The notes under the pieces were generated by a model that was not told the origin of the DNA, searched no databases, and worked only from the letters and a program-made list of their open reading frames with translations. Below, one piece after another: positions 39,563-59,600 of a DNA stretch of 64,000 nucleotides. Every line of letters begins with the position of its first letter. Positions within the stretch are counted from its first letter, which is position 1. Position numbers and translations under genes: made by a program. The stretch covers positions 8,620 through 72,619 of the forward strand of contig JBGTDR010000151.1 in the NCBI GenBank assembly GCA_041748215.1, given 5' to 3'. This DNA is from Chthoniobacterales bacterium (GTDB taxonomy: Bacteria; Verrucomicrobiota; Verrucomicrobiia; Chthoniobacterales; JAATET01).

Positions 39563-39564
39563 GG

Positions 39565-39978
39565 TCAGTTTTCGATCACGAGCCCGGCACCACTCGTGCC
39601 GGGCGGGGTAAGGGTGAAAAAATCGCCCGACCACGTCATGCGGAATGTGTCGGTCGCACTCGATGTGGTCGTGGAAAATTCCGCCGGCACGTACGGCGAG
39701 CCCGGGATGCTTTCGTCCCGGGTCGTAAGCAGCGCGAGGACTTCCAGTTCGTCGGCCGCACCGGACGCCGCCGCAACGGGAATCTTTTCTGCCGATTGGT
39801 TGTAAGAAGCCACCCCGCGATTGAGCAGCGCCATGGCGTCGGATGTCAAGACACGCCGCGAATGGTCGATCACTCCGCCAAACCGCGGCACCGCAATCGC
39901 AATGAGAAATCCGAGGATCGCCATTGTCACCACCAGCTCAACCAGTGACATCCCGCGGCGATGGAAAAACGGATTCAT
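39565..39978 (-). CDS. Prepilin-type N-terminal cleavage/methylation domain protein (pseudopilin D)
   Basis: MNPFFHRRG|MSLVELVVTMAILGFLIAIAVP gives a class III signal with Gly-1 and Glu+5. Confidence 0.7.
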   Translation of the reverse strand: MNPFFHRRGMSLVELVVTMAILGFLIAIAVPRFGGVIDHSRRVLTSDAMALLNRGVASYNQSAEKIPVAAASGAADELEVLALLTTRDESIPGSPYVPAEFSTTTSSATDTFRMTWSGDFFTLTPPGTSGAGLVIEN

Positions 39979-39988
39979 ATCGGGTAAC

Positions 39989-40408
39989 TCAATAATCGAT
40001 CGCGCCAGCCGGCCCGGCGAGACCGACTTTCGTCAGCGGTGGGCTCATCGCAGTGGGCAGGCTGAGGGAATATCCCGAGGGCAGGTAATCGGAAAACGAA
40101 TCCGGGGCGAAGGCGAGGTAAGCGGCGAGTTTGTCGTAGCGTGCCTCGTCGTTAGCTGCTCCAGCCCATTGGGTTCCCGCGGCAGACCCGTAAGCCTGAA
40201 CAAACGAAGCCATCGCGAGGTTGATGGCCTCCGCCCGGGCGATGGCGAGGTTTTCCTCACTGTCCTGCTTCACGCGAACAATGTTCGGGATCGCCAGAAA
40301 AACGATCACGCCGATCAACGCCACCGCGGCGAGAACCTCGACCAGAGAAAACGCACGGCCACGGAACGTTGAACACTGGATGTTGGAAGTTGAACGTTGG
40401 GAGTTCAC
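39989..40408 (-). CDS. Prepilin-type N-terminal domain protein (pseudopilin C)
   Basis: ...FRGRA|FSLVEVLAAVALIGVIVFLAIPN. GTG 40408 overlaps the upstream stop (GTGA), and GTG 40444 is the alternative start. Confidence 0.65.
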   Translation of the reverse strand: MNSQRSTSNIQCSTFRGRAFSLVEVLAAVALIGVIVFLAIPNIVRVKQDSEENLAIARAEAINLAMASFVQAYGSAAGTQWAGAANDEARYDKLAAYLAFAPDSFSDYLPSGYSLSLPTAMSPPLTKVGLAGPAGAIDY

Positions 40409-40409
40409 T
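40368..40409. repeat. Degenerate heptamer array (GTTGRRN x6) inside the leader-coding 5' end of pseudopilin C
   Basis: gttgaac actggat gttggaa gttgaac gttggga gttcact. It shares gttggaagttga and gttgaacgttggg with the array at 62888-62946. Confidence 0.7.
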
Positions 40410-40902
40410 GGAGTTCGACCTTGGGATAGGTGTTGGTACCCCACGCTGAGAAGGTCACGTATTCGCCGTTTTTCGCCATGGCTTCGCTGCGGACCTGATT
40501 GGCGTTGGTCGTGTTGCCCACGAAATGCTGATACGTCGCCTCGTCAAGATAAGGACTCACCAACGCCAGCTTGGCCGCACCGGTCGCCGCGGCTGCGTAA
40601 GCCCCGCGAGTGCCCGCCACACTGCCCTGCCCGGACATCTGTTTTGACGCCCAATTGTTGAGCGCCTCCTGGAGCACGGCCTGCTGCTGACGCGCCAGCA
40701 CCGCTCGCGCGTCCTGCGCCGCATTCGTAAACGACGCAATCACCATCGAAACCATAATCCCAATGATCGAGATCGTGATGAGCAACTCGATGAGCGAAAA
40801 TGCGGCGCGGGCGGGATGAGAGCGCGTGCCTTCGGCTCGCGGGATGGAACGAACCGGGACGGGACGTCCCAGCTCCCTTGGGTTCAGTTGGCGTGGCTTC
40901 AT
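40405..40902 (-). CDS. Prepilin-type N-terminal domain protein (pseudopilin B, 34-aa leader)
   Basis: MKPRQLNPRELGRPVPVRSIPRAEGTRSHPARAA|FSLIELLITISIIGIMV. Confidence 0.7.
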   Translation of the reverse strand: MKPRQLNPRELGRPVPVRSIPRAEGTRSHPARAAFSLIELLITISIIGIMVSMVIASFTNAAQDARAVLARQQQAVLQEALNNWASKQMSGQGSVAGTRGAYAAAATGAAKLALVSPYLDEATYQHFVGNTTNANQVRSEAMAKNGEYVTFSAWGTNTYPKVELQ

Positions 40903-40919
40903 CGCGATTCCTTCGGGTC

Positions 40920-40954
40920 AAAAAACAAGCTCCGGCGTCCCCGCCGGAGCTTGT
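40920..40954 (-). terminator. Rho-independent terminator directly after the putative major pilin gene
   Basis: 13-bp perfect stem acaagctccggcg / cgccggagcttgt (40925-40954) with loop tccc. On the minus strand it is followed by a U-run (A-run 40920-40924 on plus). Confidence 0.7.
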
Positions 40955-40980
40955 ATGCGCTGCAACAGAGAGTGTGAGGA

Positions 40981-41400
40981 CTATGGGGTTGGAGAGGGCG
41001 CTGCACCTGCAGGATTGTAGATCAATTCGGACCCAGCGATGGACATGTATCCTTTGGCCGCAGCGAGATCAGCTGTTGCCATGTTCGGCACATGGAATTT
41101 TGCCGCTCCTACTTCAGCGGCATTCGCACCTGTAACAACTGCAACAGCATCGTCGACCGTTGTTGCACCAGAGTGGCCCGCTGCGCGAGCGGCAGAGTAA
41201 ACTGAAACAATGTTCTGCGCATTGCGCTGATTCTTCGCATCCCCAGCACCCTCCGTCAGGTTGGCGATATTCGGGATCGCGATGGCGGCAATGATGCCGA
41301 TGACGGCGATTACCACGAGAAGCTCGATCAGACTGAACGCCTTGCGACAGGCGGCACGGAGGCTTTGGAAGGTGTTTTCGGACTGGCTGATATTCTTCAT
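40981..41400 (-). CDS. Putative major pilin/pseudopilin A
   Basis: ATG at 41400: MKNISQSENTFQSLRAACRKA|FSLIELLVVIAVIGIIAAIAIPN. The mature part is small (~118 aa). The gene has its own 152-nt upstream spacer and a strong terminator behind it. The 197-aa track ORF is over-extended. Confidence 0.75.
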   Translation of the reverse strand: MKNISQSENTFQSLRAACRKAFSLIELLVVIAVIGIIAAIAIPNIANLTEGAGDAKNQRNAQNIVSVYSAARAAGHSGATTVDDAVAVVTGANAAEVGAAKFHVPNMATADLAAAKGYMSIAGSELIYNPAGAAPSPTP

Positions 41401-41552: not shown

Positions 41553-42860
41553 TCAGGCGGCTGGAAGCCGCCACTCCTTAAAACCATACGGCGAGGGCAC
41601 CGGAGCAGGCATCACCTGGGCACTGCCGGGTTTTTTCTTTTGGGGAAGGACAACTTTGCTGAGGTTGAAGATCGGTCCGTAGATGGCGTAAACGAGGAAT
41701 CCAACAAAAACGCCCATCGTGACGATGGTGATGGGTTCGAGGATTTTGTCGATCTGGCTGGCGATGTTGTCGAGTTCCTCCTCGTAATCGGTGGCGAGTT
41801 CGTCGAGCGCCTCGGTGGCACTACCGGATTCGGCGGCATTTTGCATGAGAGCGGCGATGATGCGGCCGTCGGGGCCAAGGCGGTGGGACTCGAGCATGAA
41901 TGCCTCGGGCAGGCTGAGGCCGTCGCTGATGTGGCCGCCAAGTTTTTCGAAAAAGATGCGGAAGTCGATGTGGGTGGCGGCGGATGAGGTGATTTCAAGC
42001 GCCGTGCTGATGCGGACGTTGGCCTGGAGCAGCATGGCGAGCGTGCGAAAACTGACGGTGGCGGCGGATTTCAAGACGATGGGCCCGACCGTGGGCAGCC
42101 GGGAAATGAGACGCTGAACCTCGGGCACGCGGTAAATTTTCGACCAGCGTTTGAAGAGAAAATAGAGGCCAACGAACGGCAGGATCGCGAGGTAGGGCTG
42201 ATTGATGAGAACGTTTGAAAGCGTCATCATGGCCACCGTGGCGAGGGGGAGGTCAGCCTTGAAGCTGACGTAGAGTTTCGAGATGGCGGGAACGAGCGTG
42301 AAGCTCATGGCCACAATCACGCCAACCGCTAGGACAAGCACGATCGCGGGATAGATCAGGCCGGTCTTGAGTTTTTTGAGGATGCGGAGCGTCTTGCGCT
42401 GGGTATTGGCAATCTGCAGGCAGACCGCCGGGAGTTGGCCGGACTCTTCGCCGGCGCGCAGCAGCGCAATCACGTCGTCGGGAAAGAGCGCCGGAAACTT
42501 TGCGAAAGCATCACTGAGTTTTTCGCCGGCGGAGAGCTCGTTGATCATCTCGGCGATGGCACCGCGATAGACTGGGGATTTCACCCGGCCGGTCTGGAGC
42601 TCCAGACTCTTGATGGCGGATATATTGCGGTCCAGGCAGCGGCCAAATCCTGAAAAAAACGCGACGCGGTCGTCCATCGACGGCTGTTTCCACGTCCGGC
42701 GGTAAACGAATTCGTCGGCACCCGTGATCGAGTGGATTTTCGCGACTTCGGTGGGCGCCTTGCCGCAGGCGAGCAGGGCGAGTTCGTCGCTGGCTGTATC
42801 GATCAGGACGTCGACGGACCGGCCGGATTCGGTGTCAGTGAGCGTGACTTTTTTGAGCAT
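41553..42860 (-). CDS. GspF/PilC-family type IV filament platform protein
   Basis: 435 aa with two T2SSF-like halves, each with TM segments (LKTGLIYPAIVLVLAVGVIV..., KILEPITIVTMGVFVGFLVYAIYGPIF). Confidence 0.85.
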   Translation of the reverse strand: MLKKVTLTDTESGRSVDVLIDTASDELALLACGKAPTEVAKIHSITGADEFVYRRTWKQPSMDDRVAFFSGFGRCLDRNISAIKSLELQTGRVKSPVYRGAIAEMINELSAGEKLSDAFAKFPALFPDDVIALLRAGEESGQLPAVCLQIANTQRKTLRILKKLKTGLIYPAIVLVLAVGVIVAMSFTLVPAISKLYVSFKADLPLATVAMMTLSNVLINQPYLAILPFVGLYFLFKRWSKIYRVPEVQRLISRLPTVGPIVLKSAATVSFRTLAMLLQANVRISTALEITSSAATHIDFRIFFEKLGGHISDGLSLPEAFMLESHRLGPDGRIIAALMQNAAESGSATEALDELATDYEEELDNIASQIDKILEPITIVTMGVFVGFLVYAIYGPIFNLSKVVLPQKKKPGSAQVMPAPVPSPYGFKEWRLPAA

Positions 42861-42869
42861 GAATCAGAC

Positions 42870-43325
42870 TTACCGAATGGACGCGCGAACGGCGGTGATG
42901 ACGCTCGTGCGCAGGGCGCTGGGGTCGCCGCCGGACCACGTTTCGGGCGTAACCGTCACCGGTAAGGCTTCGAAGTTGGATTTGAAAGTGATGGTGCAGC
43001 GGATTTGTTCGATACTGCCGATGCCAACGACGGAATTTGTCGAGCGGGGTAACGTGAGCGAAATCTGAGCGGGATCGCGGGGCAGCACGGTGGTGATGTC
43101 GATGGGATCAAGGCCGAGTTGAAAAAGCCGGGCCGCTTGTTCCTGAAGATTCAGCATGCGGCTGATCACCGTATTGGCTTCGGCCTGGGTCGTGATCGTG
43201 AGGGCCATTGACGCGGTCGCGGCGACACCAATCATGAGGATGGCCGCGGCAACGAGGACTTCGATGAGCGAATAACCACGGGCGGCAAACGGCGGAGTTT
43301 CGAATTTCAGCGGACGGGGAATCAT
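42870..43325 (-). CDS. Prepilin-type N-terminal domain protein (minor pilin, 151 aa)
   Basis: MIPRPLKFETPPFAARG|YSLIEVLVAAAILMIGV. Its ATG overlaps the upstream stop (ATGA at 43322-43325). Confidence 0.65.
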   Translation of the reverse strand: MIPRPLKFETPPFAARGYSLIEVLVAAAILMIGVAATASMALTITTQAEANTVISRMLNLQEQAARLFQLGLDPIDITTVLPRDPAQISLTLPRSTNSVVGIGSIEQIRCTITFKSNFEALPVTVTPETWSGGDPSALRTSVITAVRASIR

Positions 43326-44656
43326 TGGTTGTAACTTTCGACCCAGGTGTCCCGGGCGGTGAGGCGGTCGAGCAGGCGCGGATCGAGTTCGGGCGTTATT
43401 GTGAGTGAGCCGGTCGTCACGCTGAGAGCGGAATTCGTCTGGATGCCGCCCGTGAGCACGAGGCTGCCCGCCGGAGTCCAGACAGTGGGAACATTTTCCA
43501 ACGTGACGAGCAGCCGCCAGCCTCCACTGCCGGGGTTTGGGAAATCACACGTCACGTCGGCCGGGGTGGATTTTTTAATGGCGAGAACGGCGCGCCGGGC
43601 GTTCCGGTGATTGAACGTGATATTCATGAGGGCATCCTGAACGACGACGATGCTCACGGCTCCAAGGTTTCCCGCTGCGGCGTAATCGTCGTCGGAGATC
43701 TGGCCATTGATGACGATACGATCCGACGTGCCGGTGATGACCACTCCGGGAAAAGCCGGGTCGCCGATCTCGATGGTGATGAGGCCCGCGCCGTCATCGG
43801 TCACGCCCGGGACGCTGGCCCCGGGGATCGGCCGCGCTCCGTAGGTGGTTGCGGCAACGGCAAGGGAGTTGAGGCCCGAGGAATTGGCGACGACGTCGAG
43901 TGCGCCATTGAAAGCCGGAACCCCGCCGACGTCTCCGGACGTGAGTGGCGGAAACGCAAAATTGCTACCGGGTTGGTTCTGCCCGGAACCATTCGGAAGG
44001 GTGAGCAGGCCGAGGCTGGGCGGAACGGGCGGCACCGTGAATGACGCGGTTTGAAGGGAATAGGTGCCGCCCGCCCACACCAAAGACCGGCCCGCGGCAT
44101 ATGTCGTGCCGGAAACGCTCATCGCCACCGGAGGAAGCGCCGCAATAAAAACATCGCCGCCGAGCAGCGGCGAGCGGCTGCGGGCAAAATACCGGCGAAT
44201 CTGCTGTCGCGTCACATCGCTGCCCTCGCGTGAAGTGATGGTCGCCGTCAGACTGACTGCGTAACCATCCCCATTTCCGGGATTAAAAAAATTGTAGCCC
44301 GCAAATTTCGATGTCGTTGTCAGTGGGGTGAACGCGGTGGCGGCGATGTCGACTGATCCCCAATCCACGCCACCGGAATCCGTCACCGTCGCGGTCACGG
44401 CCGCCGCACCGGTTTTTGTGAGCACCTGCGCGAGCAGATATTCCTGCGCCAGCGCATGACCATTGTTGAACGCGATGCGCCGCTTCACGCCGGCAGAAAA
44501 TTGGTCGACATACCCAGTTTGTGCCGACATCACCGCGAGCCAGCCTGCGGTGAGCGCCGCGCCCGCGATCATGATCACGAGCACGAAGGCAAGGGCCGCA
44601 CCGGAACAATGTGCCGGTCGAGAGCCGCAGATTCGTGATCGACCCGGCAGTTTCAT
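43322..44656 (-). CDS. PilX/GspK-like large minor-pilin-type protein (hydrophobic N-terminus without Glu+5)
   Basis: ATG at 44656 (MKLPGRSRICGSRPAHCSGAALAFVLVIMIAGAALTAGW) with an ATGA overlap with the upstream gene. The function is assigned from position and N-terminal topology only. Confidence 0.45.
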   Translation of the reverse strand: MKLPGRSRICGSRPAHCSGAALAFVLVIMIAGAALTAGWLAVMSAQTGYVDQFSAGVKRRIAFNNGHALAQEYLLAQVLTKTGAAAVTATVTDSGGVDWGSVDIAATAFTPLTTTSKFAGYNFFNPGNGDGYAVSLTATITSREGSDVTRQQIRRYFARSRSPLLGGDVFIAALPPVAMSVSGTTYAAGRSLVWAGGTYSLQTASFTVPPVPPSLGLLTLPNGSGQNQPGSNFAFPPLTSGDVGGVPAFNGALDVVANSSGLNSLAVAATTYGARPIPGASVPGVTDDGAGLITIEIGDPAFPGVVITGTSDRIVINGQISDDDYAAAGNLGAVSIVVVQDALMNITFNHRNARRAVLAIKKSTPADVTCDFPNPGSGGWRLLVTLENVPTVWTPAGSLVLTGGIQTNSALSVTTGSLTITPELDPRLLDRLTARDTWVESYNQ

Positions 44657-45606
44657 AAGGCCGGAAACATGGGGACGACAAAAAAGAACGACGTGCGACC
44701 ACCCATTGCCGGATAAGATGCCTTCGGATCGGTGGCGGCGTAGGTTGTGGCGGCGGGCACGGCCTCGAGCCGGGGCACGGCAGGATCTGGCCACCAGACA
44801 AAATAAAACGGGCGTCCACGCGCGATTTTGAGCCGGTCGATGGCGTCACCTTCGACGAAATTTTTTCGCGCCGCCCGCTCGAATGCGACAACCAGCGGAT
44901 TGAATGCCACCGTTGCGCCGTCCACGGCTGGATAAAAGATATCGTAATAATCCGTGAGCACGCCGGCCTCGTGGCGTGTGACCGCGGCGTAGGTCCCGTC
45001 CGAACCAATCGGCACGAGGTCGATGTCGTAGATGACGCGCACCGACAGCTCAACGACGGACGCTGAGGGTTGAAGCAAAAAAATCGAGGCATTGGTGGCG
45101 GCCGACGCGCCTCGATAGGCATCGTATTCGCCGGCGTCGGGCAATAATTGGCGGAAAGCCTCGGGAGAACCGACCGTGCGCCCGTCGAAGTTCGCGGGCA
45201 CTGCAATCGTAGTTGGACGGGAGGGATTCCGCCCATCCCTTCCGAGGCAAAAGACAGCGCTCGCCCGCGCAACGTCATCCCAAAATTTATCCCGCAACAA
45301 GTCGGCATCGGCCCGGCGGCCGTAGTTTGGGGCGGAATAGACGTCCAGATTTGTCTGGCTGAGTCCGTAGAGATTTTCCAGCACTGTAGCCCCGACGGGC
45401 AGCGAGGAATACGAAGCCGTGGGTCGGGCGGCAGCGGTGATATTCTGGTAAATCATTACGGCCGTCGTGATGACGGCGGCGGCGATGGCGGCGGCGATGA
45501 CGATTTCAACCAGGCTGAACGCCGCGTCCGCTCCAGCCGATCGATGCCGGGCACCGGGACGGAGTTCAGAGATCCGCCGGGGCTTCGGTGGGCGGAACGG
45601 GTGCAT
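44653..45606 (-). CDS. Prepilin-type N-terminal domain protein (minor pilin, ~318 aa)
   Basis: ATG at 45606: MHPFRPPKPRRISELRPGARHRSAGADAA|FSLVEIVIAAAIAAAVITTAV. Confidence 0.55.
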   Translation of the reverse strand: MHPFRPPKPRRISELRPGARHRSAGADAAFSLVEIVIAAAIAAAVITTAVMIYQNITAAARPTASYSSLPVGATVLENLYGLSQTNLDVYSAPNYGRRADADLLRDKFWDDVARASAVFCLGRDGRNPSRPTTIAVPANFDGRTVGSPEAFRQLLPDAGEYDAYRGASAATNASIFLLQPSASVVELSVRVIYDIDLVPIGSDGTYAAVTRHEAGVLTDYYDIFYPAVDGATVAFNPLVVAFERAARKNFVEGDAIDRLKIARGRPFYFVWWPDPAVPRLEAVPAATTYAATDPKASYPAMGGRTSFFFVVPMFPAL

Positions 45607-46129
45607 CGGTGGTGACACTGGGTTGAGGAACCGGCGGATTGACCGAACGTCCGCCAAGCGCGCGGCTCACTCCCGGCTGAAGATTCACTGGAATAAATAG
45701 CCGGCGGGGTTCAGCAGCGGGATCAGCCTCGATCCAGACGATTTCGATCGCGGATTCGTAGATGGCTTCGACTTTGAGCCGCTCGGTTTGACCGGCGATC
45801 ACCGGCGGCAGAATTTTTCCGGCCTCGAGAATGAGATCATCGAGCAGGATTTTGCGACCTTCGGATCCGCGCGTGCGGCCGACCACCCGGAGCTGCATCA
45901 GCACGTTGCGGATGCGATTTTCCTCTGTTTCGGCCTCCTGTTCGTCCTGCACGATTTCGGGTTTCTGCTCGCGTTTCGCGAAAGGATTGCGCTCCTCGGG
46001 GCGGATGGGAACGGGTTGTTTGTCGCCGGGCAGCAATCCGACCGAGCGCTGGGCGTGGGCGGCCGCTGCCGCACCGAACACCGCCATGCCAAGCAGGATG
46101 AGCAACCGGGTGGAGCGAAACGTGGTCAT
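45566..46129 (-). CDS. Secreted protein, PilP-like by position
   Basis: ATG at 46129 and signal peptide MTTFRSTRLLILLGMAVFGAAAAAHAQ. An acidic linker is followed by a small beta-rich domain. The assignment is positional. Confidence 0.4.
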   Translation of the reverse strand: MTTFRSTRLLILLGMAVFGAAAAAHAQRSVGLLPGDKQPVPIRPEERNPFAKREQKPEIVQDEQEAETEENRIRNVLMQLRVVGRTRGSEGRKILLDDLILEAGKILPPVIAGQTERLKVEAIYESAIEIVWIEADPAAEPRRLFIPVNLQPGVSRALGGRSVNPPVPQPSVTTDAPVPPTEAPADL

Positions 46130-46671
46130 GGCGTTTCCGCGCTGAGAAGCGGGAGGTCGATGGTGACGTCGAGGCGAATGTCGTTGCCGCTCTGGCCGCG
46201 GGCGATCTTGAGATTCGACACGCGGGAGGCGGGCAGGGACGCCTCGATGTTGCCAAGCCACGCGAGAGTTTTGGCATAGTCATCCTCGAACGTGAGATTG
46301 GCACGGACGATCCGCGGGATGTGTGGGGAGACGGTGGAATTCACGACCTCGAACCGCTGGGCCAGACTGACCAGGCCGGATTCCTTGATGCGGGCGGCAA
46401 TGTTGAGCTCGCCGGCCTCGGCGGTGTGAATCTGGTTGAGCGGCTCGCGCCACGCTTCGAGGTAGGCAATGAGCTGATTTGAATCGTCACGCAGTCCGCC
46501 GAGCATCGTGTTTTCCGTCGCGAGCACGCTCTCGATCGAGGTGGCGTTCAGTTGTGCGGCGGCGGCAGCGGCGGTCATTTTGTTGAGGCGATTGCGCACC
46601 GAAAGTGCGCCTTGGAAAACGAGCACCGCGAAAAGTGCGAGCATGACGCAGGCGAGGTGTTTGCTGTTCAT
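46126..46671 (-). CDS. Bitopic membrane protein, PilO/GspM-like by topology
   Basis: One N-terminal TM segment (HLACVMLALFAVLVFQGAL), a coiled-coil-like stretch and an alpha/beta C-terminus. ATGA overlaps occur at both ends. Confidence 0.45.
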   Translation of the reverse strand: MNSKHLACVMLALFAVLVFQGALSVRNRLNKMTAAAAAAQLNATSIESVLATENTMLGGLRDDSNQLIAYLEAWREPLNQIHTAEAGELNIAARIKESGLVSLAQRFEVVNSTVSPHIPRIVRANLTFEDDYAKTLAWLGNIEASLPASRVSNLKIARGQSGNDIRLDVTIDLPLLSAETP

Positions 46672-47291
46672 GGCGCGGTTTCCGTTGGTGGTGCGACGGC
46701 GGGCGGCGTTTCCGCGGGAGGTGTGGAACTGCCACCAGCCCCCTGCCAGATCAGGGTGGCTTCGTAGTCGATCTGGTCCCGACTCTGACGTTGCTGCGCG
46801 GAATACGGGCGAAAATTCATGCGGGTGATCTCTTCAAGCGTCGCGTCGAGCTGGCGCGTCTCGTCAGTCTGGAGGGCAACGCTCACCTTGATTTGAAACG
46901 GGGCTTTGTCTTCGCGGGCGAGGGCCAATTCCGTGATCGCGGCCCGGCTGCCAATGCTCCGGCAAATGGTGGCCACGAGCGGCTGAAGATTGCGCGATCC
47001 CTCGACCCAATTGACAAAATCCGAGGCGCGCTTGGCGCGTGACTCGAGTGAAGCGCGCTCGCCTTTTGTGCGATTGAGTTCGGTCTGGGTGGCGGCCGAC
47101 TGGGCATTCCAACGGTCGAGTTCGGCGGACGCCTGGCGAATCTGAAACATCGAATATCCCGCGATGCCGATGCTGGCTGCGACAGCGAGATAAAACCCGA
47201 GCGGCACAATGCGCAGAGTCACCGGCAGTGGCGGTGCGATCTCCGGTCGCTCGGTCTTGAGGTCGTGGACCTGTCGGGGTTCGATGTACAT
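46668..47291 (-). CDS. Bitopic membrane protein, PilN/GspL(C)-like by topology
   Basis: A short cytoplasmic N-terminus, one TM segment (LRIVPLGFYLAVAASIGIAGYSMF), a coiled-coil-like segment and a Pro/Thr-rich tail. Confidence 0.45.
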   Translation of the reverse strand: MYIEPRQVHDLKTERPEIAPPLPVTLRIVPLGFYLAVAASIGIAGYSMFQIRQASAELDRWNAQSAATQTELNRTKGERASLESRAKRASDFVNWVEGSRNLQPLVATICRSIGSRAAITELALAREDKAPFQIKVSVALQTDETRQLDATLEEITRMNFRPYSAQQRQSRDQIDYEATLIWQGAGGSSTPPAETPPAVAPPTETAP

Positions 47292-47298
47292 GGACGGC

Positions 47299-48204
47299 TC
47301 AGAGATCGGCGAGGACCCGCCAGAGCTGATGGTTGCGGGAATGATCGGTCACGGCCGCGGAAGGCAGGCGATCGCGAAGTTTTTCGACCAACGGAGATTC
47401 GTCGGTCTCGGCGACAAAGTGGACTTCCGCGTCCTTGTCGAGCCGGCTGCAAAGTGGCTGGAGGATGTCGAGCACGGGTGCCGGATCGCCGTGGTAAAGG
47501 TCGCTGCGCGAACGCAGCTCGGTCCACAGGTCGCCCGACTGCAACATCGCGCACACCGAACCTTCGCAGCAGACCACGTAAAGTCGCTCGACCTTTTTCC
47601 CACCGGGCTGATTGAGCCCGGATCGCGACCCGTCGCCGGACGGGCGTTCGGCGTTGGTTTCCTCGAGCACTCGGCAAAGCAGCGCATACGTGCCACAGGC
47701 GATGCGACCCGCTTGAAGCCCGTGTTCCTTGAGCGTCGTTTCGGTGCGACGAATCTGCTCCTCATCGCACGCGAGCAGGATCGACGCGATGCTCTCCGGA
47801 TTGTGCGTGAGCGCGTAACGTTTGCCGCGCTCGTAACGCGAGCCGAGCGCGCTCCGGGGATTCGTCCGGATCACCTCCTCGACGCCCGGCTTGCGGGACA
47901 GATTCGTTTCGAGGCTGATCACGTAGCGGGTATTGATCGAGACGGCGCACCAGCCATCGTCCGAGAGACTTTTCCACTCGTCGTTGCACTGCGTTGCGAC
48001 GTCCTTGAATTCCCCTTCCTGCGAGCCGCCCTCGAGGAATCGACCGCCCTTGCCGAGGCAGCGCCACGTCGTGGCCGCACGGCTGATGTTCAGCAAAAGT
48101 GTCCGTTTGTGCGGGAAGCGCGGCCGCCACGGAGCGGAGCTGTCGTCGGGTTCGGGCCGAAATGCCGCGAACGTCAGCACGTCCTTGATGTCCTTCAGAT
48201 TCAC
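47299..48204 (-). CDS. Cytoplasmic protein, PilM/GspL(N)-like by position
   Basis: 301 aa with no TM segment. The GTG start overlaps the PilT stop (GTGA at 48201-48204). I could read no diagnostic motif, so the assignment is positional. Confidence 0.35.
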   Translation of the reverse strand: MNLKDIKDVLTFAAFRPEPDDSSAPWRPRFPHKRTLLLNISRAATTWRCLGKGGRFLEGGSQEGEFKDVATQCNDEWKSLSDDGWCAVSINTRYVISLETNLSRKPGVEEVIRTNPRSALGSRYERGKRYALTHNPESIASILLACDEEQIRRTETTLKEHGLQAGRIACGTYALLCRVLEETNAERPSGDGSRSGLNQPGGKKVERLYVVCCEGSVCAMLQSGDLWTELRSRSDLYHGDPAPVLDILQPLCSRLDKDAEVHFVAETDESPLVEKLRDRLPSAAVTDHSRNHQLWRVLADL

Positions 48205-49253
48205 GCCGGGATCTTCACCTGTTTCGCGAGGTAATCCTCGACTTCGCCGGCGCTGAACCCGGTCGGTTCGGGTGAGACGCTCTGAAATCCTTCCTCAGCG
48301 CGCTGTGCGATGCTCCGGGTGAAATCGTTCATGCCACGCTTCCAACCGGTCTCGAGTTCCTGATCGAGCTTTTTGAACTCCCCGCGGCGGATGAGATTCA
48401 CCACGGCATCGTACTGGAGGAGGACCTCGTGAATCGGAAACCGTTTGCCGCGGGTGCCATCGAGCAACAGGCGCTGGCAAAGCACAAGGCGCAGCGTATC
48501 GGCGAGCGTCGCCTGTGCCGCTTCGACCCGCTCACTCGGGATCAGCTTCAGAAATCGCTGCACCGTCTGTGACGCCGACGACGTGTGCAGCGTGGCCACC
48601 ACCGCATGGCCGGTCTCGGACGCCTGCAGCGCGATCTCGGCCGTCTCGCCGTCGCGAATCTCGCCAACCACAATGACGTCCGGTGCCTGGCGCAACGCCG
48701 ACCGAAGCGCGTAGCCGAAATTGGTTTCGTCGCTGCCCATTTCGCGCTGCGAAACGAGTGACGGCAACGCCTCTGGATAAACGAATTCGATGGGATCTTC
48801 GAACGTGATGACGTGTTCGCGGCGGCGTTCCGCGCGGTGTTTCACCATCGACGCAATCGTCGTGGATTTGCCGCTGCCGGTTGCTCCGCAGATGAGAAAC
48901 AGCCCATTTTTGGACTCGAGAAACGTCTTCACCGCGGGCAGTGGGACTTTGATCTGGCTGGGCTCCGGGATGTCGCGCGGCAGCAGGCGCAGCACCCAGC
49001 GAAAACGGCCCTGGGTGACCATGCGGCTCACGCGAAACCGGTAGTCGCCAATCATCTGAGCGTAATCCAGGCAGCCCGGGACCAGCTCCGGAAGAGACGA
49101 CGGCTCGTAAATGTGGGCGTCGTAATGAAGCTGGCCGTTGTGTTTGTAGCAGAGCGGTTGCCCCGGGGTGACGTAAAAATCGCTCACCCCGTCGCCGGCG
49201 GCGAGTTCGACGATACGGGCTTCGAGGGCGGGCGAGGCGAGGGATTCGCTCAT
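48201..49253 (-). CDS. pilT: PilT-family (retraction-type) hexameric ATPase
   Basis: 350 aa with Walker A GATGSGKST, Asp box ITFEDPIEFVY, Walker B PDVIVVGEIRD and His box GHAVVATLHTSSA. It lacks the N-terminal GspE-type domains. Confidence 0.85.
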   Translation of the reverse strand: MSESLASPALEARIVELAAGDGVSDFYVTPGQPLCYKHNGQLHYDAHIYEPSSLPELVPGCLDYAQMIGDYRFRVSRMVTQGRFRWVLRLLPRDIPEPSQIKVPLPAVKTFLESKNGLFLICGATGSGKSTTIASMVKHRAERRREHVITFEDPIEFVYPEALPSLVSQREMGSDETNFGYALRSALRQAPDVIVVGEIRDGETAEIALQASETGHAVVATLHTSSASQTVQRFLKLIPSERVEAAQATLADTLRLVLCQRLLLDGTRGKRFPIHEVLLQYDAVVNLIRRGEFKKLDQELETGWKRGMNDFTRSIAQRAEEGFQSVSPEPTGFSAGEVEDYLAKQVKIPA

Positions 49254-49274
49254 CGCGCAATCGGGAAGGAAAGG

Positions 49275-51791
49275 TCAGTTCTCAATGACGGGCGGCAGGT
49301 TGAAAACAACGCTGTTGCTGTTGATGGTCAGGAAATTGGCAGTAACGCTGCCGGTGAAAACGCTGTTGGCGTTGAAAGTGACACTGCCCGTCGGAATCAC
49401 GAGTTGACCGTACATCGTGCTACCGGAATTGGCAGTGAAATTGCCCGACGAGAATTGCATTTGCAGCCAGTCGGGATTGGCGGAATTGCCAAGGACCGAG
49501 CCGCTGTTGATCGTGATGCTGTTGCCGACGGTGATGACCACCTTGCCGACAATTTTGAGGTCACTGTTGCTGTTCAGCGTCAGGTTATTGAAGCTGTAGT
49601 ATTGCGGGACGTCCGGATTGTTCGGATCTCCAAGCACGAACGCGGTGCCATTGTTGGCGGTAAGGTTGTTAAAATTTCCCGGGTTGAGCCGCACGTCGCC
49701 GACGCCGCTGGAATTGATGGTGACGTTGGAGAACTGGGTGGCGCTGATCGGTCCGGGTGGAGGGGAATTCAGGCTGGTCGAGCCGCTACTCTGCGGAGGG
49801 GGCGGTGGTGCGACTTCCGGGAATGCCGGGGAATCATGCCGCCGGACAACCTTGCCCTCCAGAAGCGCGTTGTTGTTGAAGGTCACGGAATAGTTCGTCG
49901 GCTGGATGCTCCCATCCTCGTCGATCACGCGCGGCGTGGTTTGCACCGTCTTTTGTCCGGCCGCGTTGAACTCCCAACCCTGGATGACGGCTGCAAACTG
50001 GTCGTCGTTGGCCGGAGACCAGACCGTGCCACTGGTGCGGCGAACCGTCGGCGTGCCGGGTAGATACAGGTTGCCGTTGAGAATGCGCGCGTTGGAATTG
50101 AACGTGATGCTATTCATCGAACCCGAAGCTGGCGTCGCGTAAATGAGGGATCCGACAAACGTCCCGTTGAGCGTGGCGCTACCCACGAGTGCACCCTCGG
50201 GTGTGGTGATCGACGTGTAGGTCGCCGTTGCCGGACTACTCGGGGTGAACCATTGGCTCGCTCCCGGCGGCCCGTAAGTACGCGCGGTCACGACAAGAAC
50301 GCCAGCCGTTCCGGCACCGGGCAGGAATTCTCCGGCGTAAAGTGTCCCGCCCGCCGCACTCCCGTTGTTGTCGCCGGGATCAAGACCATCGAGCGTGTAA
50401 TAAATCTGCTCTCCAGTCGGCCCCCCGGCGGCCGCCTCGATGGTCACGGGCACGTCCGCGGACCGGATCCCGGTGCCCGGAACAATGGTGGGTGCTCCCA
50501 GCGCGGTGGGCGTGGCGGCAACCGATGCGTTGCCCTCACCGGCGAGAAACGTGATCGTCTCTGAGCTGGACCCCTCCGCGGATGCCCGGATCGTCAGGGC
50601 GCTGCTGGCTGCCCAGCGGCCAACGCTTACGTCGATGGACGCGGGGGACGGCGAGCTTTGCTCGACCGGAGTATCGCCAGCGAGCGGGTCTCCACCGTCA
50701 TAACGCCACCAGATTTTGGGATCGGGGCGATAACGTTCGTTGATCTGAGCAAGGTTGGTGATCGCCGCAAGGGCCGGGGCTGGAGCCAGCGGTGACACGC
50801 CGGGTATCGCACCGCCCGCCTGCTGATACGTGAGCGTGGGCGCGGCGGGTGATACCGAAACCTCGAGTTGGTAGGGTGTTGCGGCATAACTGGCTGCCCC
50901 GGCGCCACCGTCAATCCAGCGATCAGGATCGACCGTCACGGCGCGGGCGGTGAGCGTGGCCCCCGGATCAACCTCGATGGCATTTGTGTAAAGGTCTTCG
51001 GGAGCGCCGTTGAGCGAATAAAGCACCTTCGAACTGCCGCCCGGATTGGGATTATTGACGGAGACCATCATCGGGTAGGCGGTCAGCTCGTAACTGCCAT
51101 CTCCGGGAGAAAAAGTCGGGGCCGTCAGCGGGTCGGCGGTTGGAGTTGGTGGAGCCAGCGCCGCAGGAGCAGCGGCAGTGCCGGCAAGAGCAGGGCCGCC
51201 GGGGCGCGCCGCAGGCTCTCGATCTGTGTAATCCCAAACCCAGCCGTTGTCCGCGAGCTTTGTGGCTGGCGCGCGATCCTCCGTCCCGGGATCGACCGCG
51301 GCGAGCGCGTCATCGAGCACAAATTGCCGAACACCCGCGCCCCCCGACATCGCAATTTCGAAACGTTGATCCGCCTGGCTGAAGATTGCCCGTTCTTCGG
51401 TGCGCGCCGCTTCGGCAGACGTCTGCATCACCGCCCGCAAACGTTTATCGACCATTCCACCGGTCAGGCCGGCGATGGTCGTGGCCGTCGCCGACGTGGC
51501 GGACTTCTTCAACTGATCGACCGCCGTCTGGGGATTCGTGGTCGCGAGCGAATTCCCACCACTGACCCGGTAAGTCTGGATCGCGGAATTAATGACGGCA
51601 ACATCGCTGCGGAGTTTTTCCACCCGGGTGGATTCGCCCAGCGAAACGATGCTCACGTAGCCAATACTCGCAAGAATGCCGATCACCGCAGCCACCACCA
51701 GACCCTCGAGCAAAGTGAAAGCGCTCCGCTCACCGGCGGAGGCCAGCCGCCTCCGGTGTGTCGAACGATGGACTAAATGCTTCGGCTTCAA
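49275..51791 (-). CDS. Giant prepilin-like protein (~839 aa) with two chitobiase/hexosaminidase-C-like segments and an Asn-rich beta-helix-like C-terminus
   Basis: ...AGERSA|FTLLEGLVVAAVIGILASIGYV class III signal. Also PTFSPGDGSY...KVLYSLNG and GEQIYYTLDGLDP segments, and C-terminal repeats of the type TFNSNA/TINSSG/TLNSNS/TINSGS/TFNANS/TINSNS. The start is uncertain. TTG 51791 was chosen because the 961-aa track ORF would run into the divergent secretin gene. Confidence 0.6.
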   Translation of the reverse strand: MKPKHLVHRSTHRRRLASAGERSAFTLLEGLVVAAVIGILASIGYVSIVSLGESTRVEKLRSDVAVINSAIQTYRVSGGNSLATTNPQTAVDQLKKSATSATATTIAGLTGGMVDKRLRAVMQTSAEAARTEERAIFSQADQRFEIAMSGGAGVRQFVLDDALAAVDPGTEDRAPATKLADNGWVWDYTDREPAARPGGPALAGTAAAPAALAPPTPTADPLTAPTFSPGDGSYELTAYPMMVSVNNPNPGGSSKVLYSLNGAPEDLYTNAIEVDPGATLTARAVTVDPDRWIDGGAGAASYAATPYQLEVSVSPAAPTLTYQQAGGAIPGVSPLAPAPALAAITNLAQINERYRPDPKIWWRYDGGDPLAGDTPVEQSSPSPASIDVSVGRWAASSALTIRASAEGSSSETITFLAGEGNASVAATPTALGAPTIVPGTGIRSADVPVTIEAAAGGPTGEQIYYTLDGLDPGDNNGSAAGGTLYAGEFLPGAGTAGVLVVTARTYGPPGASQWFTPSSPATATYTSITTPEGALVGSATLNGTFVGSLIYATPASGSMNSITFNSNARILNGNLYLPGTPTVRRTSGTVWSPANDDQFAAVIQGWEFNAAGQKTVQTTPRVIDEDGSIQPTNYSVTFNNNALLEGKVVRRHDSPAFPEVAPPPPPQSSGSTSLNSPPPGPISATQFSNVTINSSGVGDVRLNPGNFNNLTANNGTAFVLGDPNNPDVPQYYSFNNLTLNSNSDLKIVGKVVITVGNSITINSGSVLGNSANPDWLQMQFSSGNFTANSGSTMYGQLVIPTGSVTFNANSVFTGSVTANFLTINSNSVVFNLPPVIEN

Positions 51792-52011
51792 TTGGTGAAT
51801 CGGGATCGACCAGGATCGAAAGAGCCGTTGCAGCGCGATTTCACTAGACCAACAGACCTTGCCGCGGACAAGAAAAGACTTTGATTGCAAAGACCTGCAC
51901 GGTAGTGAGTCCGTCAAGCATCGCAGGCGGAGCGAAGCCCCAACTTTCCCATTTCGCGACTTGAGCCTCGAACCAGCCGGCAGCCCCATCCTTCCTTCCG
52001 GCAGTCCCCAC

Positions 52012-54081
52012 GTGCGGCGGCGCGGGGCACGAATTCGAACGATCGGCTTCTGCCTTGCGACCGTTTTTATCCTTACGTCAGCCGGATTTGACACGGGTCC
52101 AGCATCCGCCGTCGAGATGGCGCGCGGGCAATACAGCGAAGAAAGCGCCGAAGCGACCATGCTGCGAAGCGCCCCGGAGAAAGATTACGAGTTTGATCGA
52201 GCGGCACTGCGCGACGTCCTGCGATTTCTGGCCAACGACGCGGGCATTTCGTTCGTCTCGGTTCCGGAAGCCAGCGAAGCGGAGGAAAAACTGGTTACAT
52301 TCACGCTGCGGACCAGCCCATTTCGCGCCCTCGAAATCATCGCCAAAGCCAACGGCGTGGCGCTCTTCTACGAAGATGGCGTGTGGTATTTGCGGCCGTT
52401 CGACGACAAGGAACTCGTCGCCCGCACCTACAAAATCAAATTCAACACGCAGGAGAAGGTCACCTATGACCCCTCGGCGCAGTCGCAAAGTTCCACCGCG
52501 ACCAACACGACTGGAGGATCGGGCACCGGGCCGGACGTGAGTCTATCGCTCGAAGGTGCGACCGACGTTTTTAAGGTTGAAAAAACCGAGGATGGGGACG
52601 GCGACGTGATCGAAATCGTTAAGGACATCCGAGCGCTCATCGGCATCCCGACCAGTGGTTTTGATGCCTCGGTTTTGTCGGACACCGGGGTCGGATCGGA
52701 TCAAGTTCTGGGCACGTCGCCGAGTTCGGTGCGGCCGCGCTCGCCGGACGGTGGAGCCGCCAGCCCCGAAGAGACTGAAGAACCCGCCCAGCAGGTCTTG
52801 TGGAGTTCGGACTCCAATACACTCTACGTCGTCGCGACCCGTCAGCAGCAACGCTGGGTCGAAGGTTATCTCGCCTCCGTCGACCGGCCCCAGGCCCTCA
52901 TCGCGATCGAAGTGAAATTTTTCGAGTCGACCAAGGATCCGCGCAAACAGCTGGGCCTCGACTGGGCCGGCACGCTTCAGGAGGGCTACGGGGTTCAAGT
53001 CACCGACATCAACGTGGCGGCTACCGGCGCAATCAACATCACCAACGACAACACGGCCCAGCGGGCCAGCGGCACACCTCCCGCCGGCCTGGACACGTTC
53101 GATTATTACACTGGAGACCGGAATTACACGGCCACGGTCGCCGCTCCCTACTCCGCCGTTCTTTCGGCCGACAATCTCGCCGTGCGGTTGCGCGCATTTC
53201 TCAATGATCGGGACACGACCACGGTCTCGTATCCGCGCGTACTCACCCGCAACAATCGCGAGGTGGTGATTCGCAGCGTGGTCAATACCCCGGTGCTCGC
53301 TTCGAGTTCCAGCGTCACCCCCGGCGTCGGCGGCACGACCACGGCCAGCATTTCTTATTTACCCATCGGGACCATCATTAACGTGCTTCCGAAAAAAATG
53401 GACGATGGATCCATCGGCTTGAACGTCGCCATCACGATCTCGACAATCATCCGTTTCGAAGACATTGGGGGAAACCTTTATCCCGTGGTGAGTTCACGCG
53501 TTTACAATGCCGCTCTTGATGTCCGGTCCGGCTATTCGCTCGCCATCGGCGGACTGGAAGAAGCATTTGATCGCACCGCCGACAATGGTGTCCCGCTGCT
53601 GAAAGACATCCCACTTCTCGGCGAGCTGTTCAAAAGCTCGGATCGCAACCAGAGCAAAAAAAACCTCATGCTCTTTATTACGCCGACCCTGTTACCCGCC
53701 CGCTCGACAACCGGCGTCGATCCGAAGCCCGAAAGCACGATTCCCGTTACGCCGGATTTGCCCCGCCCCCCTGCTTTCACTCCGGATGGCCAGCTCATTG
53801 GCGGTGCGGCCGCCGTGCCCGCCGCCGTCGTCTGGCTCAACCGCGAGCGGCGATATTATCAGGAGCTGATCAAGGAAAACCGGATCGACAAAAAGGGCCT
53901 CGCGAAAATCGAAGAATTGATCGCGATCTGTAAATTGCTGGCCCAGCAGCTCGAAATCGAGCGGATCGACAACCCCAACCGGTCCTCGCGCATCGACGAT
54001 GAACTCGCGCGTCTCGCCCAGCTCGACCAGGCTCTGCTCGAGCTCCTGAACGACGGACGCAAAGCCATCATCACGTTTTAA
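52012..54081 (+). CDS. Secretin (GspD/PilQ family) with C-terminal coiled-coil-like extension
   Basis: C-domain signature NGVPLLKDIPLLGELFKSSDRNQSKKNLMLFITPTLL. GTG 52012 gives a signal-like N-terminus (VRRRGARIRTIGFCLATVFILTSAG). The start is uncertain. Confidence 0.8.
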   Translation: MRRRGARIRTIGFCLATVFILTSAGFDTGPASAVEMARGQYSEESAEATMLRSAPEKDYEFDRAALRDVLRFLANDAGISFVSVPEASEAEEKLVTFTLRTSPFRALEIIAKANGVALFYEDGVWYLRPFDDKELVARTYKIKFNTQEKVTYDPSAQSQSSTATNTTGGSGTGPDVSLSLEGATDVFKVEKTEDGDGDVIEIVKDIRALIGIPTSGFDASVLSDTGVGSDQVLGTSPSSVRPRSPDGGAASPEETEEPAQQVLWSSDSNTLYVVATRQQQRWVEGYLASVDRPQALIAIEVKFFESTKDPRKQLGLDWAGTLQEGYGVQVTDINVAATGAINITNDNTAQRASGTPPAGLDTFDYYTGDRNYTATVAAPYSAVLSADNLAVRLRAFLNDRDTTTVSYPRVLTRNNREVVIRSVVNTPVLASSSSVTPGVGGTTTASISYLPIGTIINVLPKKMDDGSIGLNVAITISTIIRFEDIGGNLYPVVSSRVYNAALDVRSGYSLAIGGLEEAFDRTADNGVPLLKDIPLLGELFKSSDRNQSKKNLMLFITPTLLPARSTTGVDPKPESTIPVTPDLPRPPAFTPDGQLIGGAAAVPAAVVWLNRERRYYQELIKENRIDKKGLAKIEELIAICKLLAQQLEIERIDNPNRSSRIDDELARLAQLDQALLELLNDGRKAIITF

Positions 54082-54179: not shown

Positions 54180-56951
<2,772 letters not shown>

Positions 56952-57042
56952 GGATGGAGGTAAGTAAAGGGTGCGAGGGGGTTCCTTTGATAGCAGGAGC
57001 ACCGGGTGTGTCAACGCGTGCCGGATTGCCCCGCGACGGACG

Positions 57043-57315
57043 TCACGCGGGCTCAGACTCGGCCAGCGCCGATGTGGCGACTTCGTCGAAAAGGCGGTCG
57101 AAATCCGCCAAACCCGTGCTCGGAATGATGATGGAATTGCGCCGACCATGCGCTTCTTCCGTGATGCGCAGGAACTTCCCGCGTTCGTTTTCGCGATATT
57201 CGATGAAGAAGTGCTTGCGTTCGATCTGCAAGTCACGGGCCATAAGAATGTTGTCCATTCGATTAAATACAGCTTTGCCGCTCGGGTGGCGAATATCGCT
57301 CACCAACCGCTTCAA
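57043..57315 (-). CDS. Small PUR-alpha-like (DUF3276-type) nucleic-acid-binding protein
   Basis: [26 protein letters not shown] matches the PUR repeat pattern. The start is uncertain, with TTG 57315, ATG 57258 and ATG 57243 as candidates. Confidence 0.55.
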
Positions 57316-59514: not shown

Positions 59515-59600
59515 AGTGTCCGCAACCGGCCCGGCGTTGACAAGAAAATGCTTGCTTGCTCACTGGGAGCCGCGAAATTCCCCCAATACCTTCTCCCACT

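Follow-up and report, generated by a model that had tools for sequence, protein, structure and literature searches.

Pilins that carry, besides the pilin module, at least one domain that is not pilus-specific are widespread: a survey listed more than 1,200 such modular pilins in 264 architectures, with a size maximum of 860 amino acids (aa) (Raynaud et al., 2021; PMC8179133). Several large ones, PilB and PilC of Streptococcus sanguinis, CofB and ComZ, have been argued to be tip-located (PMC8179133, PMC6561018). CofB and TcpB, of type IVb pili, are located at the tip and initiate the pilus (PMC8179133, PMC10191384), and the solenoid of ComZ, a pilin of Thermus thermophilus, is triangular and closest to the ice-binding protein (IBP) FfIBP (PMC6561018). 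Here we describe the 838-aa protein encoded by a minus-strand gene of a 64,000-nucleotide (nt) stretch of a Chthoniobacterales genome (contig JBGTDR010000151.1, positions 8,620 to 72,619; this whole stretch is called the window). We conclude that it is probably a modular minor type IV pilin, with an adhesin displayed at or near the pilus tip and retracted by PilT. The modular-pilin design is already known; what is new is an uncharacterised Verrucomicrobial member and its family.

The protein resembles S. sanguinis PilB, which has a vWA module, and PilC, which has a lectin module, in its N-terminal pilin module, class III signal, non-pilus modules and presumed filament-displayed adhesion (PMC8179133, PMC9934059). 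In contrast to these proteins, its predicted cargo consists of three immunoglobulin (Ig)-like domains and a DUF7305/IBP-like solenoid, its pilin module is followed by a 34-aa disordered linker instead of a short loop, and its host is a diderm that has a secretin and PilT. Its size is near the top of the range of the Raynaud survey, and it is known from sequence and prediction. ComZ (6QVI) is likewise a pilin with a large beta-solenoid of IBP-like fold, argued to be at the tip (PMC6561018). However, the ComZ solenoid is inserted in the pilin beta-sheet and is rigid, whereas here it is C-terminal, behind the linker and three Ig-like domains, so that the protein is not of the ComZ type; ComZ binds DNA, whereas this solenoid is not basic, and the two proteins share a weak Foldseek match and no sequence similarity. 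CofB and TcpB also combine a pilin module, a flexible linker and beta-rich C-terminal domains, but these are a beta-repeat and a beta-sandwich in a trimeric protein, the type IVb machine has no PilT, and no homology was detected. Finally, PilY1/PilC of type IVa pili is a functional analogue, in that a minor-pilin complex presents a large adhesin, part of which is a variable 'effector', at the tip. PilY1 is a non-pilin defined by a C-terminal beta-propeller, whereas the carrier here is a pilin module, and Pfam and NCBIfam searches found no PilY1-type propeller in the 838-aa protein, which places it outside the PilY1/PilC family.

The protein is predicted to begin with the leader MKPKHLVHRSTHRRRLASAGERSA, followed by FTLLEGLVVAAVIGILASIGYV, and contains no cysteine (composition count). 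The TTG codon at 51791 is the sole canonical in-frame start near the hydrophobic segment that gives a normal leader, and is also the start used in a preliminary description of this DNA. Upstream, the open reading frame (ORF) remains open to an ATG at 52160 but there runs into the divergent secretin gene; the signal peptide of the secretin, RRRGARIRTIGFCLATVFILTSAGFDTGPASA, is encoded from about 52012 onwards. Initiation at ATG 52160 was rejected: the gene would cross the region of the secretin signal peptide, and the resulting 147-aa 'leader' is kept in no orthologue. The NCBI protein for the gene (P0001, 807 aa) starts at GTG 51698, within the hydrophobic pilin helix (V32), which is 31 aa short. 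The NCBI record does not look like a pilin because this start removes the leader, F+1 and E+5, and the public annotation thereby masks the nature of the gene. Several other family representatives, among them P0015, P0017 and P0144, appear to be truncated at the N-terminus in the same way.

If GTG 51698 were the true start, the product would be an ordinary membrane-anchored or secreted protein, prepilin-like at its N-terminus by resemblance only. The NCBI annotation agrees with this idea, as does the Pfam N_methyl model, which scored under its cutoff (17.9 bits compared with 21.2). Nevertheless, we regard it as extremely improbable. First, F25, T26, L27, E29 and L31, all upstream of V32, are conserved in all relatives. 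Second, start codons in orthologous loci lie 8-25 aa upstream of the FTLxE motif, which contradicts initiation at GTG 51698. Third, an ordinary anchor is contradicted by profile matches to pilin alpha1 structures and by the operon context, both presented below. Judged on sequence conservation, the upstream start and the prepilin N-terminus are real, because the orthologues, besides having upstream starts, share the FTLxE motif and a leader of basic character. The preliminary description had placed the prepilin-type N-terminus at about 51719, and the start does lie upstream of that position. In one orthologous locus (L015), a stop codon is found 10 aa upstream of the motif, so that the leader, if any, is short; a GTG some 9 aa ahead of the motif is the sole start available there.

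A class III signal peptide is predicted, with cleavage between Ala24 and Phe25 (A-FTLLE). The full-length homologues P0002 and P0003, about 40% identical, keep the sequence (A/G)FTL(V/I)ELLVV and a basic leader. F25, T26, L27 and E29 were invariant in an alignment of 11 relatives, and Glu+5 (E29) was invariant in 40/40 aligned family members. TIGR02532 matched the N-terminus above its cutoff (18.5 bits, cutoff 16.3), N_methyl was matched by 30 of the 40 family members, and the GspG model gave 27 bits for a cutoff of 88.85. When the 40-member family profile was compared with the PDB, it matched only alpha1 helices of solved pilins (geopilin, E 2e-9; PilE1, 2e-8; GspG, 2e-7). As had been proposed, the N-terminus is therefore a conserved class III signal and alpha1 helix rather than a generic signal anchor. 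Among the 118 family representatives with a recognisable motif, the residue at -1 was Ala in 52 and Gly in 65.

The structure was predicted with AlphaFold from an alignment of 40 sequences (model m41409d4bee78; mean predicted local distance difference test score, pLDDT, 85.5). In an earlier run made with three sequences, aa 1-530 were unusable (pLDDT 46.7), and that model was reused only to focus Foldseek on the solenoid. The 40-sequence model shows a helix of about 50 residues (27-76) and a head with strands at 118-122, 134-138, 143-147 and 154-159 (pLDDT about 85-94), that is, a predicted 'lollipop' pilin fold. Whatever the variant found in the operon slot, this head module is retained. With a class III signal, Glu+5, a lollipop fold and an association with pilus machinery, the protein is, on sequence and model, a type IV pilin.

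Beyond the head, the model contains the disordered linker, three Ig-like beta-sandwiches and the solenoid. The preliminary description had noted two 'YYTLDG'-type segments resembling the C-terminal domain of chitobiases; both are present (aa 225-268 and 447-476), but they belong to a set of three homologous Ig-like domains, and the full pilin head and the disordered linker were missing from that inventory. When slices of the alignment were compared with hhalign, Ig1 matched Ig3 with a probability of 96.6% (E 6.5e-10), Ig2 matched Ig3 with 89.5% (E 2e-6) and Ig1 matched Ig2 with 82.7% (E 9e-6), compared with 0.1-0.3% for the controls. By this profile evidence the three sandwiches are homologous. 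In Ig3, CHB_HEX_C_1 (PF13290; aa 447-474) and Fn3_assoc (PF13287; aa 459-474) remained below their cutoffs (19.4 bits vs 22 and 21.7 bits vs 23, respectively). At the aligned position relatives were above threshold for CHB_HEX_C_1 (P0092, 25.7; P0052, 25.6) or Fn3_assoc (P0023, 29.7), and among the 40 family members 26 matched Fn3_assoc and 23 matched CHB_HEX_C_1 at E<=0.01. Ig1 and Ig2 are tied to Ig3 by profile-profile comparison alone. We therefore treat the three domains as probable divergent relatives of CHB_HEX_C_1/Fn3_assoc and do not call them members. The searches with PF07963 (N_methyl) and PF13290, proposed as a check in the preliminary description, thus fell just short in the protein itself and succeeded with its relatives at the aligned positions. 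Foldseek searches with the full model were dominated by tandem-Ig proteins such as cadherins and GhpA. These CHB_HEX_C-like domains are more likely to form a stalk than to bind glycans.

The Asn-rich tail, which had been described as beta-helix-like, was modelled as a parallel beta-solenoid. Eleven units of the h-T-h-N-S type are found in aa 531-838, compared with three weaker matches in aa 1-530, and Asn makes up 13% of this region vs 2.5-3.2% of the rest of the protein. Structure prediction thus recovered both the Ig-like modules and the solenoid, with pLDDT values of about 90. DUF7305 (PF23981) gave 16.2 bits (E 0.01) for a cutoff of 27, so that the solenoid is outside the family as Pfam delimits it; the homologous module of P0070 scored 36.9 bits, above the cutoff, and 9 of the 40 family members matched DUF7305 at E<=0.01. 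Another relative, P0047, reached the threshold for pAdhesive_15 (PF20597), described as an 'ice-binding-like adhesive domain'. With the three-sequence model, in which the C-terminus alone is folded, Foldseek returned ice-binding and antifreeze proteins (5uyt, E 1.8e-3; 7dc5 and 3vn3, probability 0.99, root-mean-square deviation about 3.5 A). The long flanking alpha-helix typical of IBPs is absent from the AlphaFold model. From profiles and the predicted fold, we consider the solenoid to be probably a divergent DUF7305 with an IBP-like fold, which does not imply that it binds ice. The same solenoid was also found on non-pilin proteins with a Sec-type-looking hydrophobic N-terminus (P0113 and P0116).

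The likeness to ComZ raises the idea of a DNA receptor for natural transformation, since the solenoid matches the same IBP structures as that of ComZ and, weakly, ComZ itself, which is the only solved pilin with an IBP-like beta-solenoid. This role is highly improbable: the solenoid is poor in charged and particularly in basic residues (K 1.3%, R 2.3%, vs D+E 5.1%), it sits on a long stalk rather than within the pilin sheet, Foldseek matched it only weakly to 6qvi (E 0.12, probability 0.14), and we noticed no genes for competence in the cluster. A polysaccharide or another regular surface is suggested as the ligand rather than DNA, because the solenoid is neutral, rich in Thr, Asn and Ser, and mounted on Ig spacers such as carbohydrate-active and surface proteins typically have.

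By its Ig-like domains and solenoid, as recognized from profiles and the model, the protein is a modular pilin. We propose that the prepilin would be inserted in the inner membrane while its cargo folds in the periplasm, and that the leader would be removed at Ala24-Phe25 by a prepilin peptidase encoded elsewhere. The pilin module may then join the three neighbouring minor pilins in a pilus-priming complex, and extension driven by the PilB-type ATPase would drive the cargo, a thin and elongated Ig-Ig-Ig-solenoid chain, out by way of the secretin with the fibre behind it. The solenoid would serve as the adhesive head and would most likely bind a polysaccharide or some other regular surface, and retraction of the fibre by the adjacent PilT-type ATPase would draw the cell and the bound substrate together. 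This proposal follows what is established for type IV filaments (PMC10191384) and modular pilins (PMC8179133, PMC6561018).

Placement at the tip is favoured because a fibre that traverses a secretin can hardly carry folded side appendages. Alternatively, the protein could be a low-abundance pilin scattered along the fibre, the shaft of which would be decorated with many stalked solenoids. The presence of Glu+5 and of a 34-aa disordered linker between head and cargo are in line with this arrangement, and Raynaud et al. pointed out that with a flexible linker a position in the fibre body is not excludable (PMC8179133). In a diderm secretin system, however, a fibre with folded side appendages of about 650 aa is unlikely to pass a channel that it barely fits, as judged from known secretin and pilus dimensions, and we consider this arrangement distinctly unlikely.

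Several observations weigh against the tip-adhesin proposal. No prepilin peptidase (PilD-like) gene was found within the 64-kb window. The residue at -1 is Ala and not the canonical Gly, a feature shared with nearly half of the family and almost all other pilins of the cluster. Pfam N_methyl, CHB_HEX_C_1, Fn3_assoc and DUF7305 all score below their gathering cutoffs in the 838-aa protein itself, and comparison of the family profile with the PDB detected no sequence relative of the head among solved pilins beyond alpha1. As Glu+5 is present, the protein need not be a capping subunit, and the long flexible linker would in principle permit a position in the fibre body. Processing, assembly, surface exposure and binding are inferred from sequence, model and analogy.

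The pilin gene opens an operon that is conserved and resembles those for type IV pili (Table 1); the preliminary description, too, had placed it first in its operon. It is followed by the genes for a PilT-like ATPase, four platform proteins, three minor pilins, PilC, small pilins and PilB, with the secretin gene divergent upstream; the cluster thus encodes seven pilin-like proteins besides the 838-aa pilin. The best match of the PilT-like ATPase was TIGR01420 (pilT_fam), with 274 bits, below the cutoff of 319. A promoter and terminator consensus scan of 49100-52300 gave no sigma-70 consensus match, and detected nothing resembling a terminator that would separate the pilin gene from pilT.

Table 1. 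Positions of the modular prepilin gene, of the predicted parts of its product and of the surrounding genes (window coordinates)
Feature	Position	Strand	Basis and remarks
Modular prepilin gene, 838 aa	49275..51791	minus	TTG start at 51791, stop codon 49275-49277; ORF/start analysis, full-length homologues P0002 and P0003, AlphaFold
Predicted leader peptide MKPKHLVHRSTHRRRLASAGERSA	51720..51791, aa 1-24	minus	Basic, Ala at -1; aligns with P0002 and P0003 leaders; pLDDT <50 (disordered)
Predicted pilin alpha1 helix	51564..51719, aa 25-76	minus	F+1, E+5, family motif KLxxDVxxxNxAxxxY..GG
Predicted pilin globular head	51246..51563, aa 77-182	minus	Short helix and four-stranded antiparallel sheet, ends in conserved WVWDY
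Predicted disordered Pro/Ala/Gly-rich linker, ~34 aa	51141..51245, aa 183-217	minus	pLDDT <50 for aa 183-216; 20% Pro, 29% Ala
Ig-like domain 1 (CHB_HEX_C/Fn3_assoc-like)	50877..51140, aa 218-305	minus	Predicted beta-sandwich, hhalign, Foldseek
Ig-like domain 2, contains IWWRYDGGDP	50502..50876, aa 306-430	minus	hhalign and AlphaFold model
Ig-like domain 3, contains IYYTLDGLDPG	50202..50501, aa 431-530	minus	Sub-threshold Pfam matches; relatives above threshold
Predicted Asn/Ser/Thr-rich beta-solenoid, 308 aa	49278..50201, aa 531-838	minus	AlphaFold pLDDT mostly >90; divergent DUF7305; Foldseek to IBPs
Divergent intergenic region, presumed promoters	51792..52011		Between pilin and secretin genes; starts inferred from sequence
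Secretin	52012..54081	plus	Divergent; Pfam Secretin E 9e-33; start inferred at GTG before signal peptide
PilT-like (retraction-type) ATPase, 350 aa	48201..49253	minus	T2SSE E 1e-43; begins 21 nt past pilin stop
Four genes in PilM/N/O/P positions	45566..48204 (47299-48204, 46668-47291, 46126-46671, 45566-46129)	minus	Weak GspM-like matches; conserved order
Minor-pilin-like gene, AAFSLVE	44653-45657	minus	N_methyl/TIGR02532/PilV matches to trio, N-terminal sequence, synteny
Minor-pilin-like gene, cap-like, without Glu+5	43322-44656	minus	N-terminal sequence, synteny
Minor-pilin-like gene, GYSLIE, PilV/GspI-like	42870-43325	minus	Trio spans 42870..45657
PilC/GspF platform protein	41553..42860	minus	T2SSF E 1e-39
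Four small pilin genes, candidate major pilins	39568..41400 (about 40981-41400, 40405-40902, 39989-40444, 39568-39978)	minus	N_methyl matches and motif scan
PilB/GspE-type extension ATPase	37328..39634	minus	T2SSE E 1.6e-99; start uncertain

The composition of the cluster bears on two further roles. The protein could be a core assembly minor pilin of the GspH/FimU slot, which would prime the pilus and link an I/J/K-like tip complex to the major pilin, its cargo being accessory. The pilin module, and not the cargo, is the conserved part of the operon slot; apart from this protein the cluster has just three minor pilins, one like I (151 aa), one like J (334 aa) and one like a K without Glu5 (444 aa); and weak GspG and GspH matches were found at the N-terminus. 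However, the similarity to GspH (TIGR01708) is limited to alpha1 (aa 25-64) and far under the cutoff (15 bits vs 80), which leaves the protein outside the GspH/FimU family, and cargo of some form is always there and reaches 62-80% conservation in certain lineages, from which it follows that the cargo itself is under selection. We therefore consider such a primarily structural role unlikely; it is not exclusive of the tip-adhesin reading.

The second role is that of a pseudopilus subunit or inner-membrane-anchored part of a type II secretion system (T2SS)-like machine, which would stay in the periplasm or release the cargo as a secreted product. The platform proteins, which are only weakly GspM-like or, in the PilM position, have no match, are compatible with it, and a relative is labelled 'pseudopilin PulG' at JGI. 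We nevertheless hold it to be very unlikely, as a gene for a PilT-family ATPase lies directly downstream and is always syntenic, four small pilin genes lie beside the PilB and PilC genes, and the cargo domains are of kinds known from surface adhesins. To our knowledge, classical T2SSs have no PilT-family ATPase.

A modular pilin displayed at or near the tip remains the preferred reading. In orthologous loci, the pilin gene was found between those for the secretin and the PilT-like ATPase in every locus that had an operon-slot orthologue and enough flanking sequence (about 20 loci). The order secretin, pilin, PilT, ..., PilC recurs in Chthoniobacterales, Terrimicrobiaceae, 'Verrucomicrobiae' metagenome-assembled genomes (MAGs) and metagenomes; the metagenome scan for loci used an 11-sequence alignment as query. 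Across these loci the pilin has diverged to 27-57% identity, vs 60-80% for PilT. The same slot and the same pilin module are combined with other cargoes: three Ig-like domains and 13 DUF5122 propeller blades (1286 aa), DUF4114 (434-461 aa), or one Ig-like domain and an uncharacterised domain (521 aa). Identity is mosaic as well. The solenoid is 62-80% identical to those of loci L011, L012, L014 and L017, whose alpha1, head and Ig parts are 26-58% identical; the reverse was observed with P0002 and L022 (58-62% in alpha1, 33-42% in the solenoid). This mosaic suggests that modules are exchanged between pilin scaffolds, or else that the parts are under very unequal constraint. One locus, L033, was uninformative, as its ORFs were fragments of the Ig region and lacked a pilin module. 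In two loci (L001, 20097-22463; L003, 14974-17348), a CHASE4-PAS-HisKA_3 sensor kinase is encoded directly after PilC, where the window has small pilins and PilB.

The preliminary description had called a pilin of this kind unusual, which is an overstatement, as modular pilins are widespread (PMC8179133) and the family itself is large. Word-indexed searches with the protein or with the 40-sequence alignment found three proteins only, and the apparent rarity was overturned by an exhaustive hidden Markov model (HMM) search, which gave 771 cluster representatives at E<=1e-30. Motifs and lengths were counted in the best 150 of the 771: 116/150 have a class III-like motif and 130/150 the alpha1 motif KLxxDVxxxN; 36/150 are longer than 1,000 aa and 6/150 longer than 4,000 aa, five of these with a pilin N-terminus, and the longest has 5,087 aa. 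In the giants P0097, P0027, P0144, P0092 and P0112 (2,000-5,087 aa), the pilin module and Ig region (aa about 21-520, about 29% identity) precede arrays of propellers of the OLF/DUF5122 type. The head and Ig domain 2 of the family have no model in Pfam or NCBIfam.

Two giants with readable contigs (2,833 aa, and at least 3,789 aa in a Verrucomicrobiales MAG) are orphans with no adjoining pilus genes (L042, 479-8980; L044, 10001-21367). The earlier expectation that homologues always lie beside PilT-like genes is therefore borne out for operon-slot orthologues and not for the whole family, because the giants examined are orphans. One giant gene, in a Verrucomicrobiales MAG, was observed downstream of gliding/ABC-type and type VI secretion system genes. 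Giant adhesin-like genes also occur beside T2SS- or type IV pilus-like loci in other bacteria of the PVC (Planctomycetes-Verrucomicrobia-Chlamydiae) group (bioRxiv 10.1101/2023.11.21.568195), to which the broader interpretation given next, if true, would be a possible link.

A broader interpretation is that Verrucomicrobiota use one dedicated carrier pilin (about 160 aa, usually with an Ig stalk) as a plug-in platform, the cargo of which is swapped by recombination, and that this extends to the orphan giants. We regard it as rather doubtful, as it is weakened by the position of the examined giants, orphan genes outside the operon slot. If it were true, and if the giants were processed and displayed on retractile pili via a secretin, no known pilus subunit would come near them in size, and how such giant cargo crosses the outer membrane would become a question.

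The family defined here is a large, uncharacterised pilin family with a constant carrier, a fixed operon slot and exchangeable cargo. It would carry the 'modular pilin' idea, which comes mainly from a Gram-positive pathogen, over to diderm bacteria of the environment and, if the giants are real pilins, to far larger sizes. Soil Verrucomicrobia are abundant, mostly uncultured polysaccharide degraders, and a retractile pilus with a stalked beta-solenoid head is a candidate means for their attachment to substrates.

Other genes of the cluster deserve mention. The gene in PilM position (47299-48204, 301 aa) has syntenic counterparts of 37-64% identity in all related loci, and gave no Pfam or NCBIfam match at E<=0.1; since in addition the next two genes have only weak GspM-like matches, the inner-membrane platform appears to be highly divergent. 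Amuc_1100, a member of the pilus-like cluster of Akkermansia, was considered as a lead for the platform genes and dropped, as no sequence match was found in the PDB. The 444-aa pilin-like protein (43322-44656) has a hydrophobic N-terminus without Glu+5 (...GAALAFVLVIMIAGA...). Lack of Glu+5 is a hallmark of capping subunits of the GspK/PilX type. Pfam and NCBIfam contained no match for this protein, and BLASTP against the solenoid of the large pilin gave nothing significant. It shares the lack of Glu+5 with described tip caps (PMC10191384), a precedent that speaks for placing the large pilin at the tip.

The fourth small pilin ORF (MNPFFHRRG followed by MSLVELV..., 39568-40032 minus) overlaps the 5' end of the maximal PilB-type ORF (768 aa), and the start of the PilB-type ATPase is for this reason probably downstream of 39634. 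This ATPase has a long N-terminal extension, with a faint MshEN-like match only. Ala is found at -1 in almost all prepilin-like genes of the cluster (AFSLIE, AFSLVE, AFTLLE), the exceptions being 42870-43325 (Gly before YSLIE) and 39568-39978 (Gly before MSLVE). Because Ala at -1 is common in the cluster and nearly as frequent as Gly in the family, these sequences hint at a prepilin peptidase with relaxed specificity at -1.

The flanks of the cluster look housekeeping by translation. Downstream of the secretin gene, 54180-57236 (minus) is pyruvate phosphate dikinase-like, and beyond PilB, 35529-37082 (minus) is 2-isopropylmalate synthase-like; the translations of the flanking ORFs gave no sign of a mobile element, at which no search was aimed. 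Finally, a stand-alone prepilin-like ORF (...SQRA followed by FTLIELLVVIAIIAVLMGLLFPA) was observed outside the pilus cluster, at 59541-60131 (plus); stand-alone prepilin-like ORFs of this kind are abundant in PVC-group genomes.

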